From: a virus
UHGV virus genome: UHGV-0123627
DNA: 38,813 bases
Strand: one strand, 5' to 3'
Shown here: positions 14,680-19,527 of the stretch, piece by piece
How positions within the stretch are numbered: position 1 is the stretch's first letter
Layout of the letters: each line of letters opens with the position of its first letter
The notes under the pieces: model-generated
The model's database searches: none
What the model was told of the DNA's origin: nothing
Seen by the model: the letters and a program-made list of their open reading frames with translations, nothing else
Program-made: the position numbers and the translations under genes

Positions 14680-15328
14680 TGGCAGCAAATACCGAAATAT
14701 TTGGGTAGTTGGCGATCTGCACGGATGCTACACGAACCTGATGAAAAAACTGGAGACGATGGGATTCGACACCAAAAAAGACCTGCTTATCTCGGTTGGC
14801 GATTTGGTCGATCGCGGTACAGAGAACGTCGAATGTCTGGAATTAATCACATTCCCCTGGTTCCGAGCTGTACGTGGAAACCATGAGCAAATGATGATTG
14901 ATGGCTTATCAGAGCGTGGAAACGTCAATCACTGGCTGTTTAATGGCGGTGGCTGGTTCTTTAATCTCGATTACGACAAAGAAATTCTGGCTAAAGCTCT
15001 TGCCCATAAAGCAGATGAACTTCCGTTAATCATCGAACTGGTGAGCGAAGGTAAAAAATATGTCATCTGCCACGCCGATTATCCTTGTGACGAATACGAA
15101 TTTGGAAAGCCAGTTGATCATCAGCAGGTAATCTGGAACCGCGAACGAATCAGCAACTCACAAGACGGGATCGTGAAAGAAATCAAAGGAGCTGACACGT
15201 TCATCTTTGGTCATACGCCAGCAGTGAAACCACTCAAGTTTGCCAACCAGATGTATATCGATACCGGCGCAGTGTTCTGCGGAAACCTCACATTGATTCA
15301 GGTACAGGGAGAAGGCGCGTGGGCATAA
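14657..15328 (+). CDS. ninI: NinI Ser/Thr protein phosphatase
   Basis: [29 protein letters not shown]...GNHE... metallophosphatase motifs; matches the lambda phosphatase. Confidence 0.9.
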
Positions 15329-15837
15329 GAGAACTAAACCTCACCAAAGAGCAGCACGAGTGGCTGAATGGCTGGCTTGAACTGTGGGGCGCATGGGTTT
15401 ATTCAGGTCGTCTGGAAAAGCGCATGAGCAGCGTAATAGCGAAGTTCATGGAGAGCGTAGAGCCGGGAAGAGTTATGACAAGGCCAATGTGCAATGATGA
15501 TGATGGAATGTTGATTTCTCAGGTCGTCGATTCCGTCATGTACATTGACAAAAAAGCCTTTGGCATCCTCCTCAGCTACTACGCTCATGGTTCATCTAAG
15601 CGAGCAATTGCATCCTACTATCACGCGACTGCAAAGCCACGCAAGATGTGTGGACGTGGTGGCGAGGGATGGAGAAAACCTTCACTGGCAACCTGTAGAA
15701 ACGAAATTGACGACATCCTGAAAGCGTCATTATTTGTTTTGTACCAACCAATGCAAAATGCTTTCAAAATGCGTAAACGTGTTGAGAAAGTTAAGCATGT
15801 TGCTGTTAAAAACCTTGACATGCAATTAGCCATTTAG
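15319..15837 (+). CDS. Late-gene antiterminator Q (non-lambda, QuuD/phage 82-like family)
   Basis: 172-aa ORF directly after ninI; the ...[12 protein letters not shown]... and ...[14 protein letters not shown]...YYAHG... segments resemble the ERWGAW / CDDD motifs of QuuD-type Q proteins as remembered. Not lambda Q. Confidence 0.65.
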
Positions 15838-15844
15838 CTATAAT
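15815..15844 (+). promoter_or_regulatory. Candidate late promoter pR'
   Basis: TTGACA (about 15815-15820), 18-bp spacer, TATAAT (about 15839-15844); the -35 lies in the last codons of Q. Confidence 0.5.
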
Positions 15845-15854
15845 TAGAGGGTAA

Positions 15855-15897
15855 GCTGCCGTTAGTGACTCTTAAGTTGCAACGGTGGCTTTTTTTA
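15855..15897 (+). terminator. Candidate tR' terminator
   Basis: GCTGCCGTT ... AACGGTGGC hairpin (two G-U pairs, long loop) followed by TTTTTTTATTT. Confidence 0.4.
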
Positions 15898-15900
15898 TTT

Positions 15901-15975
15901 GGGTCAGTCGTATAAAGGTCATTACGGAAGGCTGTTAACCTTCTTATCGTGGTTCGAGTCCACGCTGTCCCGCCA
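15901..15975 (+). tRNA. tRNA-like gene, anticodon GTT (Asn) by manual fold
   Basis: Hand-folded cloverleaf: T-arm CGTGG-TTCGAGT-CCACG, anticodon arm GAAGG-CTGTTAA-CCTTC, 3' end GCCA; the acceptor stem has one T-T mismatch and the D stem is 3 bp. Confidence 0.5.
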
Positions 15976-15980
15976 AATAT

Positions 15981-16056
15981 GCTGGTTTAGCTCCAATGGT
16001 AGAGCAGTCGCCTTGTAAGCGAATGGGTAGCGGTTCAAGTCCGTTAACCAGCACCA
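15981..16056 (+). tRNA. tRNA gene, anticodon TGT (Thr) by manual fold
   Basis: Perfect 7-bp acceptor stem GCTGGTT/AACCAGC, D-arm GCTC/GAGC, T-loop TTCAAGT, encoded CCA end; anticodon loop CTTGTAA. Confidence 0.7.
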
Positions 16057-16300
16057 TAACTGAGCCGTAGCCACTGGCTATCCTGAATTCATCAGTGATA
16101 GTTACGCTGCGGCCTTCTACACATGACCTTCGTGAAAGCGGGTGGCATGAGGTTGCGCTAACAACCTCCTGCCGTTTTGCCCGTGCATATCGGTCACGAA
16201 CAAATCTGATTACTAAACACAGTAGCCTGGATTTGTTCTATCAGTAATCGACCTTATTCCTAATTAAATAGAGCAAATCCCCTCAATGAAGGGGTAGAGC

Positions 16301-16504
16301 ATGTACCGTATGGACAAAATCAGAGAATGGTTCAGTTACAGCTTCGGAGGACTGACTGCGATGGGTGGCATTCTCTCCCTGAATGACTGGGCTGTCATCA
16401 TTGGTATTCTTTGTACTGTCGGCACATTTGGCATCAACTGGTACTACAAGCGCAAAGAGCGCGAGGACAGATTGAATGGCAATGTCACCGGCACTACGAA
16501 ATAG
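16301..16504 (+). CDS. Holin (small two-TMD class, likely pinholin) with dual-start motif
   Basis: 67-aa [60 protein letters not shown]...; Met1 and Met4 separated by a basic residue; directly upstream of a SAR endolysin. Confidence 0.8.
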
Positions 16505-16979
16505 CGTAATAGCGGCGATAAGTGGCGGGGCTATTGCTATAGCATCTGTGTTAATCACTGGACCAAGTGGTAACGATGGCCTGGAAGGTGTCAGCTACAT
16601 ACCATACAAAGATATTGTTGGTGTATGGACTGTATGTCACGGGCATACAGGAAAAGACATCATGCTCGGTAAAACGTATACCAAAGCAGAATGCAAAGCC
16701 CTCCTGAATAAAGACCTTGCCACGGTCGCCAGACAAATTAACCCGTACATCAAAGTCGATATACCGGAAACAACGCGCGGCGCTCTTTATTCGTTCGTCT
16801 ATAACGTGGGCGCAGGCAATTTCAGAACATCGACGCTTCTTCGCAAAATCAACCAGGGCGATATCAAGGGCGCATGTGACCAGCTACGTCGCTGGACATA
16901 CGCTGGCGGTAAGCAATGGAAAGGGCTGATGACTCGCCGTGAGATTGAGCGTGAAGTCTGTTTGTGGGGGCAGCAATGA
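16476..16979 (+). CDS. SAR endolysin (lysozyme, phage 21 R / P1 Lyz type)
   Basis: N-terminal Gly/Ala-rich weakly hydrophobic signal-anchor-release segment ([19 protein letters not shown]) followed by a lysozyme-like domain; GAGGA 8 nt before the ATG. Confidence 0.9.
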
Positions 16980-17413
16980 GCAGAGTAACTGCGATTATCT
17001 CCGCTCTGGTTATCTGCATCATCGTCTGCCTGTCATGGGCTGTTAATCATTACCGTGATAACGCAATCGCCTACAAAGAGCAGCGCGATAAGGCCGCATC
17101 CACAATTGCTGACATGCAGAAGCGTCAACGTGATGTAGCAGAACTTGACGCCAGATACACAAAGGAGCTTGCTGATGCTAACGCGACTATCGAAAGTCTC
17201 CGTGCTGATGTTTCTGCTGGTCGTAAGCGCCTGCAAGTCGCCGCCACCTGTGCAAAGTCAACGACCAGAGCCAGCGGCATGGGCGATGGAGAAAGCCCAG
17301 GACTTACAGCAGATGCTGAACTCAATTATTACCGTCTCCGAAGTGGAATCGACAAGATAACCGCGCAGGTTAACTACCTGCAGGAATACATCAGGACGCA
17401 ATGCCTGAAATGA
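16976..17413 (+). CDS. Rz: Rz i-spanin
   Basis: [30 protein letters not shown]... matches the lambda Rz N-terminus; start overlaps the endolysin stop (ATGA). Confidence 0.9.
17175..17360 (+). CDS. Rz1: Rz1 o-spanin (lipoprotein), embedded in the +1 frame of Rz
   Basis: [20 protein letters not shown] then a Pro-rich segment; lipobox LVVSAC; wholly inside Rz. Confidence 0.75.
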
Positions 17414-17449
17414 TCGGGCGATGAAAACCAAAAAAAACAGGAGCAATAC

Positions 17450-17725
17450 ATGACTAAGCTTTATCACCGCATCTCAACTTTTCTCTCTGGTTGCTGGGCG
17501 TTTATCACGTCTATTTCGTTCGCCATCTTTAGTTTCGGTAGCACAGCGTGCTCGCTTAGTCGGGGTCTGTGGCGTGCTATTTCAGCACTAGCGCCGAAAT
17601 TTTTACCTGAAAAGGCTGTTTGGCGAATTGTAGAGCGAATGTGTAGTGAGAGCGTTCGCGAGAAGATTAACGTATTTGGACGTCATCCTCGAAATACAGG
17701 CGCATTGTGCAGTTCGTTACTGTAG
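17450..17725 (+). CDS. Hypothetical protein (91 aa)
   Basis: ATG preceded by CAGGAG; no recognisable family; could be non-coding. Confidence 0.3.
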   Translation: MTKLYHRISTFLSGCWAFITSISFAIFSFGSTACSLSRGLWRAISALAPKFLPEKAVWRIVERMCSESVREKINVFGRHPRNTGALCSSLL

Positions 17726-18019
17726 TCATTACAAAGCCCATCAATGGGTGGGCTTGATAATGAAACCGGAATTTATTCTGGGCAACCAGTTACGGCAGTA
17801 CCGCGAAACAACCCAAGCCAGTAAGTGGGGAAATAACACTGGCAGCCACTGAAAGATGAACCTCCAGCCTTATGGCAAAAAAGATTCTTTGTGGTGGCGG
17901 ACTGATGGAAAGACATCGGTTATTGCAGAGGCCATTCAATGAGTGGTCTCGACAATGGCTTATACCCTACACGGGATAACTTAACTGATATCCCTTTTAA
18001 CGGATAAACGGAGCCAACA

Positions 18020-18262
18020 ATGGCAGAGATTATTCCCATGACTGAAGAACAGAAATTCCAGTTAGAGATTTACAAACTGGTCATGAACCAGAACGCAGCC
18101 GCAGAAGAAGCATTTCAGTTCATTGGCACTGACGAGCTGAAGCTTGAGCTATTCAAAATTCACTTCCAGTCAGGCGGCGCTAATTCAGATATCACGATCC
18201 GCACATTCGAAGCGGTGCGTAAATCGAAGGAAGCGTTAGACCTGTTCACCACCGGAGCATGA
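18020..18262 (+). CDS. Hypothetical small acidic protein (80 aa)
   Basis: ORF with AACGGAG upstream; MAEIIPMTEEQKFQLEIYKLVMNQNAAAEE... Confidence 0.4.
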   Translation: MAEIIPMTEEQKFQLEIYKLVMNQNAAAEEAFQFIGTDELKLELFKIHFQSGGANSDITIRTFEAVRKSKEALDLFTTGA

Positions 18263-18263
18263 T

Positions 18264-18443
18264 GTGAGCTGCGTAATCAATTTGGGTAAGGAAAAGAAAT
18301 TCCCAATTACTCAAGAGCTATACGAGCGGTTGGAAAGCGCCATCCATGATTACGATGGTGAAATCAGTTTATGTGAGGCGATTGGCACACTCGAATTGCT
18401 GAAGCAGTCACTGATTGAAGGCGCGAAAGAGTCCTTAACCTGA
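18264..18443 (+). CDS. Hypothetical small protein (59 aa, GTG start)
   Basis: GTG 6 nt after GGAG, starting right after the upstream stop; ends just before a strong hairpin terminator. Confidence 0.2.
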   Translation: MSCVINLGKEKKFPITQELYERLESAIHDYDGEISLCEAIGTLELLKQSLIEGAKESLT

Positions 18444-18468
18444 AATAACGATTAAGTGAGATGAATAT

Positions 18469-18500
18469 GGCAGCACTCAACATGCTGCCTTTTATCGTTT
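18469..18500 (+). terminator. Intrinsic terminator
   Basis: GGCAGCA-CTCAACA-TGCTGCC followed by TTTTATCGTTTATT. Confidence 0.5.
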
Positions 18501-18506
18501 ATTAGT

Positions 18507-18746
18507 TTAACCGCGAGCTTCACGACCGTTTTCGTCTTCAGGCACACGGAAACGCCAGTACTTATCTGGCTTAACCCAAACAACACTTTCACCGCTATCA
18601 ACCCTGAATTTATTAATCACTTTTGTTGATAGCGCTTGGTTGCCATCCGCATTTTCTTTGAGGTGCTGCTCGTTATGTTGTTTAACGAGATAATCCACAA
18701 CATCCTGCTGATAAAGGCAACCCTCTGTTGATAAAACGGACATCAT
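18507..18746 (-). CDS. Hypothetical protein (79 aa)
   Basis: Minus-strand ORF opposed to the late operon; no clear SD; no family recognised. Confidence 0.4.
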   Translation of the reverse strand: MMSVLSTEGCLYQQDVVDYLVKQHNEQHLKENADGNQALSTKVINKFRVDSGESVVWVKPDKYWRFRVPEDENGREARG

Positions 18747-18790
18747 CCATGATGAAATATCATCAAGAGTTAAGGTTGGTGTGTTTGGGG

Positions 18791-18973
18791 CTATGGCTTT
18801 GGGGTAACGCGCTCAAGAGATTCCGGTTTGAAATATCCTTGCTCAAGCTTCTTGCCAGCAAACCATTGACAAAGAAAAGAGTTACCTTGGGTAGATGAAA
18901 ATAACCTGATAGTCATGTCAGGTCCGCCTGATTTCAGTTTAACAATGTCACCTGCTTTAAAGTCATTGTTCAT
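18791..18973 (-). CDS. Small protein, DUF2158 (YodC-like) family candidate
   Basis: ATG with AGGAG 7 nt upstream; MNNDFKAGDIVKLKSGGPDMTI... resembles YodC-type small proteins. Family from memory. Confidence 0.5.
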   Translation of the reverse strand: MNNDFKAGDIVKLKSGGPDMTIRLFSSTQGNSFLCQWFAGKKLEQGYFKPESLERVTPKP

Positions 18974-18999
18974 AACAATCTCCTTATGGGAAGTAAAAA

Positions 19000-19527
19000 A
19001 TGGCACTCACCGACAAACAAGAAATGTTCTGTCGCGAGTACCTCATCGATTTAAATGCCACGCAAGCGGCTATTCGGGCGGGGTACAGCGCAAAGACAGC
19101 TAACCGTACCGCATCCGAAAACCTGTCAAAACCTGACATCAAGTTAAGAATCTCCGAACTGAAAGCGCAACGCAATGATCTTGTTGGTATTAATGCAGAA
19201 TATGTACTTAATCGCCTTATTGAAATCGACCAGATGGATGTGCTCGACATTCTCCTGCAAAACGGCGAGTTAAAGCCAATTAAAGACTGGCCTAAGGTAT
19301 GGCGCACAACGTTATCAGGAATGGATGTTGTGGAGATGGTATCCGCAGATAGTGCAGCACTCCTGAAGAAAATCAAATGGCCTGATAAGGTTAAAAACCT
19401 CGAACTTCTTGGTAAGCATGTTTCTGTTCAGGCATTTAAAGAACAATCTTCTCACGAGCTAACCGGCAAAGACGGCGGCGCAATCCAGATTGAAACATCA
19501 CCGATGAGCACTCTATTCGGAAAATGA
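19000..19527 (+). CDS. Terminase small subunit
   Basis: 175-aa MALTDKQEMFCREYLIDLNATQAAIRAGYSAKTA... typical N-terminus of the phage terminase small subunit family. Confidence 0.85.
   Translation: MALTDKQEMFCREYLIDLNATQAAIRAGYSAKTANRTASENLSKPDIKLRISELKAQRNDLVGINAEYVLNRLIEIDQMDVLDILLQNGELKPIKDWPKVWRTTLSGMDVVEMVSADSAALLKKIKWPDKVKNLELLGKHVSVQAFKEQSSHELTGKDGGAIQIETSPMSTLFGK

Follow-up and report, generated by a model that had tools for sequence, protein, structure and literature searches.

Small genes, paired stem-loops and a probable recombination joint between the lysis and packaging modules of a P22-like phage

Introduction

The interval between the lysis and packaging genes is one of the main sites of optional genes in lambdoid phages and prophages, P22 pid and a Tad2-like gene among them, and the virus genome UHGV-0123627 raises the question of what occupies this interval when most of it carries only very small open reading frames (ORFs) or none. 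The window analyzed is the whole stretch of 38,813 nucleotides (nt); the segment under study, positions 17414-18500, lies between the spanin gene Rz and a pair of minus-strand genes. A sequence-only reading had described this segment as an island of three candidate plus-strand ORFs of 91, 80 and 59 amino acids (aa), preceded by Shine-Dalgarno sequences, together with about 290 base pairs (bp) devoid of any convincing ORF, and ending in a strong terminator, at a position where phage lambda carries bor on the opposite strand.

Taking genes, stem-loops and terminator origin together, we consider it likely that the segment forms an optional end piece of the lysis module within the Q-dependent late operon, put together as a mosaic from units that can be exchanged independently. 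What this adds is modestly new: ORF91 as a real gene, a pair of structured stem-loops in the spacer and the origin of the terminator at a joint. The rest of the locus is an ordinary late-operon mosaic of modules annotated in P22, HK620 and HK140.

Three small genes of known families

The units of the segment are listed below; stem-loop scores refer to R1, a covariance model made from ten hand-picked stem-loop variants.

17450-17725, plus strand: ORF91, 91 aa, ATG start; phrog_34701 / HK140 gp68
17725-17765, plus strand: stem-loop copy 1; R1 61.6 bits, E 1.2e-13; -20.4 kcal/mol
17766-17918, plus strand: conserved non-coding core, from alignments; 17800-17920 nearly invariant among lambdoid phages
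17919-17960, plus strand: stem-loop copy 2; R1 58.9 bits, E 6.3e-13; -22.6 kcal/mol
17961-18019, plus strand: ORF80 leader, with a weak hairpin, the Shine-Dalgarno sequence of ORF80 and the point where pid is inserted in P22 (between 17978 and 18006)
18020-18262, plus strand: ORF80, 80 aa, ATG start; DUF2560, equivalent to P22 Orf80 / HK620 HkbM
18264-18443, plus strand: ORF59, 59 aa, GTG start; P22 Orf59c / HK620 HkbN
18467-18505, plus strand: relic of a P22-type small terminase gene (terS) start, ATGGCAGCAC..., a 12-codon ORF (MAALNMLPFIVY and a stop codon) running through the hairpin
18469-18499, plus strand: terminator-like hairpin and T-run, between the convergent ORF59 and DUF6953 genes, which are 63 nt apart

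The three ORFs are present as had been described, each with GGAG or AGGAG 6 nt before its start codon, and the comparison of coding potential across relatives that had been proposed as a check found their frames conserved, with purifying selection on ORF91 and ORF80. All three are real genes of already annotated families, whose profiles they match over the full length. The content of the segment had been called different from that of lambda and unassigned; the former holds, as no homologue of lambda Bor is found (the minus-strand genes encode DUF6953 and DUF2158/YodC proteins) and no minus-strand ORF is conserved within 17414-18500, while the latter does not, given that the ORFs belong to the DUF2560, Orf59c and phrog_34701 families.

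ORF91 matches phrog_34701 over positions 1-91 of 91 (E 1.3e-55), and the HK140 locus is 98% identical to it. It has 50 homologues at 55-98% identity, 47 of them 90-91 aa long, and among 1.84 billion representative proteins its family forms 15 clusters at 50% identity, 14 of which measure 87-93 aa, the remaining one being a 53-aa fragment. Variable sites are distributed 23/12/47 over the three codon positions. Against Enterobacter homologues of 55-70% protein identity the ratio of non-synonymous to synonymous substitution rates (dN/dS) is 0.09-0.2, with dS saturated, and in the C-terminal 39 codons synonymous changes affect 21 of 27 sites, compared with 4 of 90 for non-synonymous changes. ORF91 is thus a real gene, and purifying selection on it is strong. 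The RefSeq pipeline skips it in prophages L005 and L006, both 98-99% identical to the window; its recognition as a selected gene is a gain in annotation. ORF91 is always found directly 3' of the spanin genes, behind several unrelated lysis cassettes of four types, including Rz, DUF2570/LysC and Glyco_hydro_108. The predicted protein is basic (isoelectric point, pI, 10.2), with a single hydrophobic segment at its N-terminus (Kyte-Doolittle 19-residue maximum 1.69 near residue 20) that probably spans the membrane and anchors the protein, and a near-invariant C-terminal domain of 39 aa, W58, E62, T83, G84 and L86 being invariant residues. Codon 89 (17714-17716) encodes Ser in the window, the sole exception in alignments where 16 of 17 and 13 of 14 sequences have Pro. 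The 83-aa and 67/72-aa ORFs that follow ORF91 homologues in Enterobacter prophages were considered as counterparts of the next two genes and turned out not to be homologues of ORF80 or ORF59.

ORF80 matches the whole of Pfam PF10834 (DUF2560; profile 1-72 of 72) with 143.3 bits (E 2.6e-42; the cut-off is 25). At the DNA level it is 94-97% identical to its counterparts in P22 and HK620 and colinear with them, preceding the 59-aa ORF and the packaging genes as they do; its variable sites fall 24/12/47 by codon position. ORF59 matches phrog_3546 over positions 1-59 of 59 (E 1.4e-41) and has 64 homologues, its variable sites (5/3/8) being too few to decide on selection. Its GTG start lies 1 nt past the ORF80 stop codon, the same arrangement as in P22 (coordinates 41256/41258), suggesting that the two are probably translationally coupled. 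ORF59 is dispensable: E. coli 573 and phage IME10 cleanly lack it (positions 18265-18433). Both products are acidic (pI 4.7 and 4.6). The structure prediction that had been suggested for them gave helical models and no fold match: AlphaFold2 yields four helices for ORF80 (predicted local distance difference test score, pLDDT, 69) and, for the ORF59 monomer, a coil at residues 1-16 plus two helices (pLDDT 71), and Foldseek found no significant match in the PDB for either model.

Searches of Pfam and NCBIfam gave no functional assignment for the three ORFs, PDB sequence searches with their profiles gave nothing below E 0.2, the PADLOC defense hidden Markov models (HMMs) matched none of five small proteins better than E 0.014, and a functional study of DUF2560 or orf80 was not found in the literature; the 'ORF80' of PMC5155283 is an unrelated Sp5 gene. 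Two specific ideas were dropped. A resemblance of MTEEQKF...NAAAEEAF to the N-terminus of TerS had raised the possibility that ORF80 is a stand-alone TerS-like helix-turn-helix domain, yet hhalign against the TerS of the window gave 0.2% probability over 7 columns. A ribbon-helix-helix fold for ORF59 was likewise unsupported, with a best Foldseek E of 7, no ribbon-helix-helix match and empty HMM and sequence searches. The three proteins are most likely non-essential accessory or counter-defense factors, a prior taken from their neighborhood, because a Tad2-like anti-Thoeris gene fills the same slot in a relative. That gene, with PF11195 at E 6.4e-22, lies in the slot, upstream of the stem-loop, on the minus strand of locus L037 (at about 1657) and in related loci.

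A non-coding, structured spacer

Judged by its alignments, the 294-bp spacer between ORF91 and ORF80 (17726-18019) does not code for protein, and the sequence-only reading was right to see no convincing ORF in it: no spacer ORF is kept in relatives. Candidates of 28 aa (from 17856), 35 aa (17872), 22 aa (17939) and 30 aa (17760) and two minus-strand ORFs of 47 and 49 aa were rejected because their starts are lost or their frames shifted in relatives, because there is no third-position excess and because no PHROG family matches. Thus, HK140 and mEp235 have ATA in place of the ATG at 17856, the ATG at 17872 is AAG in locus L116 and is followed just downstream by a +1 frameshift in locus L076, and the 30-aa ORF is reduced to 9 aa in a second haplotype. 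The spacer has neither codon periodicity nor third-position excess, and the ten longest of its 14 six-frame stop-to-stop pieces of at least 20 aa have no PHROG match. It is also not a 3' remnant of rha, as P22 rha stops exactly where homology to the window starts.

The same spacer is present and unannotated in HK97, HK620, mEp235 and N7, and pieces of it occur, almost always unannotated, in 2552 of 5426 complete E. coli genomes, the sub-piece 17941-18008 being the most widespread fragment. Nucleotide diversity in the core 17800-17920 is 0.019-0.024; in the same set of loci the third codon positions of ORF80 have 0.11-0.17. Next to the core, positions 17763-17799 come in two haplotypes that differ sharply even though the phages that carry them are otherwise nearly identical. 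In the leader, the hairpin GGGAUA...UAUCCC followed by UUUU (about 17972-17997) is weak, at -9.4 kcal/mol.

The spacer is the most structured part of the region. Its plus strand folds at -104.7 kcal/mol, against -77.4 kcal/mol for shuffled sequences (z = -5.8), and it contains two stem-loops that are both more stable than the terminator hairpin at the end of the segment (-11.7 kcal/mol). They share one plan, consisting of a lower stem CAUUA/UAAUG, a 2x2 internal loop CA/GA and an upper stem of 9 bp that is closed by a 4-8-nt loop. Copy 1 begins at the final base of the ORF91 stop codon; copy 2 is a diverged direct repeat of it, with an upper stem GAGGCCA/UGGUCUC that includes one G.U pair. In the whole window R1 has these two strong matches only, both on the plus strand, the minus-strand reading scoring 19 bits versus 59-62. 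The covariance search that had been proposed for 17726-18019 thus had a mixed outcome: a cmscan of 15500-19500 against Rfam at E <= 1 returned only two tRNAs, with no family for spacer or stem-loops, and the two stem-loop copies were found to carry compensatory changes. What had looked like an empty spacer is, for annotation purposes, a conserved and structured non-coding element.

Among lambdoid phages and prophages R1 matches 231 copies in 168 loci. In 73 distinct copies 98.2% of cells are paired and both sides have changed in 10 of 14 pairs, values reached by none of 500 shuffles. Compensatory variants are seen for copy 1 in the Enterobacter loci L012 and L016, and for copy 2 in HK140, P22, 611R6 and mEpX1. 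More than 20 sequence versions of the upper stem exist, in comparison with a lower stem and internal loop that are almost fixed. In 35 distinct copies free of stem-pattern selection, 77 G.U pairs stand against 11 A.C pairs, and the mean folding energy is -20.4 kcal/mol on the plus strand and -13.8 kcal/mol on the minus strand. Both the G.U excess and the strand advantage in energy indicate that the structure is one of the late mRNA, on the sense strand.

Out of 129 stem-loop copies, 100 lie no more than 45 nt behind a plus-strand ORF that is 40 aa or longer, and 55 start at the stop codon itself. By C-terminal sequence the upstream genes represent about 40 families, five of which could be named by Pfam or PHROG; the named ones include ORF91, hkbL-like, Rha, Gp49 / Sf6 gene 66 and the Tad2-like Thoeris anti-defense gene. 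The edges of the stem-loops are also the commonest mosaic breakpoints, and Stx2 phage 1717 carries a copy 1/copy 2 hybrid with all intervening sequence deleted, pointing to recombination between the copies.

The cargo slot and its mosaic joints

The position had been called a recurrent cargo site, and comparison of phages bears this out. The slot from the Rz stop codon (17413) to 17726 contains ORF91 in the window, HK140 and N7, Rha in P22, KilA-N plus hkbL in HK620, HK97 and Stx2 phage 1717, and a GIY-YIG nuclease in E. coli A15. The spacer takes further inserts, either pid, which in P22 reprograms host dgo expression, or genes of the Sf6 gene 66 type (mEpX1, 611R6, IME10). With a variable ORF91 slot and an ORF59 absent from some relatives, the segment has the presence/absence polymorphism of morons.

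Mosaic joints were located at 17414, 17722-17727, 17762, 17971, 18260/18264, 18433 and 18471-18476. Others correspond to recognizable events: an insert of about 60 bp in HK620 and IME10 (17775/17779), the right end of P22 rha (17792), the insertion of a Sf6-type gene 66 (17917/17919), the insertion of P22 pid (17978/18006) and the junction of the HNH module in HK97-type phages (18101). In P22, pid is a moron located between orf25 and orf80, and the site is empty in relatives such as PS34 or otherwise filled (PMC3573128, Cenens et al.); by alignment the window is of the empty type.

Among the closest known arrangements is that of P22, where rha, orf25, pid, orf80, orf59c and gene 3 (BK000583 / NC_002371) occupy the same place, from Rz/Rz1 to terS. 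There orf80 and orf59c share 94% DNA identity with the window, and the stretch around orf25 is homologous to 17792-17978. The two differ in that P22 has Rha where the window has ORF91, in the minus-strand pid moron between 17978 and 18006, absent from the window, and in gene 3, which directly follows orf59c in P22, whereas the window has an inverted DUF6953 plus YodC unit and a terS of the Terminase_2 type. In the HK620 series hkbK-hkbL-hkbM-hkbN, the last two correspond to ORF80 and ORF59 at 97% DNA identity, and in the HK97 / HK140 region, from Rz to the HNH endonuclease gp74, HK140 gp68 corresponds to ORF91 (98%). HK620 and HK97 differ from the window by the KilA-N gene and hkbL in the cargo slot, and HK97-type phages retain only the first 27 codons of ORF80, fused to the HNH module.

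A terminator-like hairpin at a recombination joint

The 7-bp hairpin with a T-run is indeed present. At 18469-18489 the arms GGCAGCA and TGCTGCC enclose the 7-nt loop CTCAACA and are followed by TTTTATCGTT; five of the seven pairs are G-C. Read on the plus strand this has the sequence features of a Rho-independent terminator, and on the minus strand the tail behind the hairpin is AUAUUCAUC, which makes a poor U-tract. The region is fairly rich in terminator-like sites (7, versus 2.4 +/- 2.2 in shuffles).

That the hairpin closes an island is a second point on which the sequence-only reading was not fully right. Its surroundings carry the start of a P22-type terS: the relic start ATGGCAGCAC aligns with the start of P22 gene 3, ATGGCGGCAC (MAAPKG...), and homology to P22 and HK620 covers the ribosome-binding site of terS together with its first three codons before ending at 18471-18476. 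By this alignment the left arm GGCAGCA is the retained terS start, and the right arm and T-run belong to the incoming block, so the terminator sits at a recombination joint and appears not to be a designed operon end. An identical hairpin occurs in three relatives with the same joint (L005, L087 and L007, the last 100% identical over 18400-19050). Two distant loci with a DUF6953 gene, L013 and L118, have a different hairpin with its T-run on the minus strand, and in P22 and HK620, which lack the inverted moron, terS starts 23 nt past ORF59 and there is no hairpin. The hairpin would thus be the by-product of a swap in which the P22-type terS was replaced by the inverted DUF6953 plus YodC moron and the Terminase_2 terS.

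Expression and alternative explanations

A consensus scan of 17414-18500, crude enough for a weak promoter to escape it, found no promoter-like site on either strand, and hence no sigma-70 promoter of the kind that a moron carries for itself. A case of such a weak promoter in this region is P22 Ppid, with its eroded -10 element (PMC8835761). Given the position of Q upstream and the lack of a predicted internal promoter, the three genes ORF91, ORF80 and ORF59 are probably late genes, which Q-modified RNA polymerase would transcribe together with those for lysis and packaging. As for a terminator of its own, ORF91 is followed by a stable stem-loop (-20.4 kcal/mol) that lacks a U-tract; the T-run is found only at the hairpin 18469-18489.

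On this explanation the stem-loops may act as 3'-end, stability or processing signals in the RNA of the upstream cistron, being a 3' end that many otherwise unrelated accessory genes of the region have in common, with their conserved outer sequences offering homology patches for the swap or deletion of cargo among lambdoid phages. The terminator hairpin could halt non-antiterminated plus-strand transcription that runs antisense into the moron in a lysogen and could also supply the moron transcript with a 3' hairpin, and in lytic growth Q-modified polymerase would read through it.

Several points weigh against this explanation. Termination at the hairpin, its read-through by the modified polymerase and the processing of the RNA are deductions from the DNA sequence. 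The low diversity of the core could stem from recombinational homogenization instead of selection: ORF80 diversity is patchy, low at both ends and high in mid-gene, as expected of alleles recombining through conserved flanks, and for this reason the ratio of spacer to ORF80 diversity was dropped as proof of constraint. The first set of loci was picked by a pattern that falls within the 3' arm of copy 1, a bias that led to the strand test being repeated on the 35 distinct copies given above, which come from a second set picked by a core pattern; even so, many of the G.U pairs are inherited and are not independent events. Without a U-tract the stem-loops are not classical terminators. Finally, the protein models are moderate (pLDDT 69-71), their fold searches came back empty, and the promoter scan has the limit noted above.

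As to the stem-loops themselves, we put forward as a tentative possibility that the 41-nt element (CAUUA-CA-9 bp-loop-9 bp-GA-UAAUG) is a new cis-acting RNA element of lambdoid late operons, read through its invariant lower stem and CA/GA internal loop by a host or phage factor, such as a nuclease that segments and differentially stabilizes late mRNA, and also marking the ends of exchangeable cassettes with accessory and anti-defense genes. They might instead be mere boundary (linker) sequences kept by recombination, with no RNA function and with a low diversity that reflects recent spread. Boundary sequences in lambdoid phages are an established idea, as cited in PMC3029335, and the clustering of breakpoints at stem-loop edges, the hybrid copy of Stx2 phage 1717 and the low diversity at both ends of ORF80 all fit it. 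Neutral linkers, however, would not be expected to keep pairing while 10 of 14 pairs have changed on both sides and 98% of cells remain paired, nor to vary in the upper stem with the structure kept, nor to show a 7:1 excess of G.U over A.C and a plus-strand advantage of 6 kcal/mol, and we regard a pure linker role as rather unlikely.

Some prophage small RNAs act in trans in lysogens, and the spacer could in principle encode an independent small RNA of this sort, or an unannotated micro-protein, with its own promoter and a transcript that ends at the weak UUUU hairpin at about 17972-17997. The near-invariance of 17800-17920, the fold z-score of -5.8 and the wide, almost always unannotated occurrence of spacer pieces (2552/5426 complete E. 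coli genomes) are compatible with such a product, and the pid promoter of P22 illustrates that promoters of the region can be weak and non-consensus. Yet no promoter-like site emerged from the scan, Rfam gave no match at E <= 1, every small spacer ORF is broken in some relative and the core is missing from many phages that retain the stem-loop, which together make this an improbable account. Descent of the spacer from a decayed protein gene is a highly improbable one. The candidate is the 'orf118' of phages ST64T and L: phages L, SF11 and 103203_sal4 annotate a 118-aa ORF from an ATG homologous to that at 17872. This ORF (L009, 1447-1803; also L011 and L021) is apparently a divergent DUF2560 gene whose annotated start lies about 38 codons too far upstream and which retains its own GGAG-CCAACA-ATG signal downstream of that start, so that its upstream part is an in-frame extension. 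Moreover, L116 lacks the ATG and L076 has the frameshift just behind it, codon periodicity is absent and the six-frame pieces have no PHROG family. The spacer is accordingly not a frameshifted known gene, an outcome that the sequence-only reading had named as fatal to its view.

Relation to known systems

Like lambda bor and P22 pid, the genes of the segment are optional and stand between essential late-gene modules. They differ from those morons in lying on the operon strand, in having no predicted promoter of their own and in a 3' hairpin without U-tract, as compared with the typical promoter-gene-terminator layout. Intercistronic hairpins are known to shape polycistronic mRNAs in the case of phage T7 RNase III sites and the bacterial repetitive extragenic palindromic (REP) elements. 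By analogy, the window element resembles these as a stable stem-loop of the sense strand, with an internal loop, located 3' of a cistron and lacking a U-tract; it is unrelated in sequence, has a conserved lower stem and internal loop, and coincides with recombination joints. The element also resembles the boundary sequences proposed for lambdoid mosaicism and, as a looser analogy, integron attC sites: it is short, stands at cassette ends, and is conserved in sequence on the outside and in pairing only in the inner stem. It is not accompanied by a dedicated recombinase; exchange at the window element presumably proceeds by general or Red-type homologous recombination, and its strand asymmetry points to RNA and not to folded single-stranded DNA.

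In practical terms, the shared 3' stem-loop is a handle for finding cargo genes in the region. If it is an RNA processing or stability signal, it adds a post-transcriptional layer to the classical single late transcript, and if the proposed role holds it would be a functional cassette-end signal of the lysis-packaging cargo hot spot, of which parts are present in about half of the complete E. coli genomes.

Phage type and neighboring genes

Sequence comparison places the window with the P22-like (Lederbergvirus) lambdoid phages, the closest records being Lederbergvirus N7, Kapi1, HK620, Sf6 and P22, and HK97-like siphoviruses sharing part of the region. The surroundings of the segment are as follows.

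15319-15837, upstream of the segment: Q antiterminator gene (PF06530)
15901-16056, between the Q gene and the holin gene: tRNA-Asn and tRNA-Thr genes
Ending at 17413: holin, lysozyme and Rz genes, Rz with embedded Rz1
17414-18500, between Rz and the minus-strand gene pair: segment under study
18507-18746, minus strand: DUF6953 gene (79 aa)
18791-18973, minus strand: DUF2158/YodC gene (60 aa)
19000-19527: Terminase_2 small terminase gene (terS), with the large terminase gene next

The tRNA genes (Asn-GTT and Thr-TGT) sit within the late transcription unit. None of the 50,697 phage records searched contains the inverted DUF6953 plus DUF2158/YodC unit (18507-18973), which occupies the same position in prophages of E. 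coli and Enterobacter. A promoter for this unit would need to sit within the terS coding sequence, where none is predicted. In prophage L006 (3668-4090), RefSeq names an HK620-type small terminase 'ubiquitin carboxyl-hydrolase'.

A second terS relic is found beside P22 pid, whose 'exceptionally long' 5' untranslated region is antisense to the relic of a Terminase_2-type terS 5' end. This relic (L008, that is P22, 2161-2246) is 92% identical to the terS start of the window (18996-19081), with ATG changed to GTG, and its antisense position suggests that the phage that donated pid probably had a minus-strand moron directly upstream of a terS of this type, an arrangement that the window also shows. 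In the record of phage P6 the relic is entered as a 'terminase small subunit' of 62 aa.

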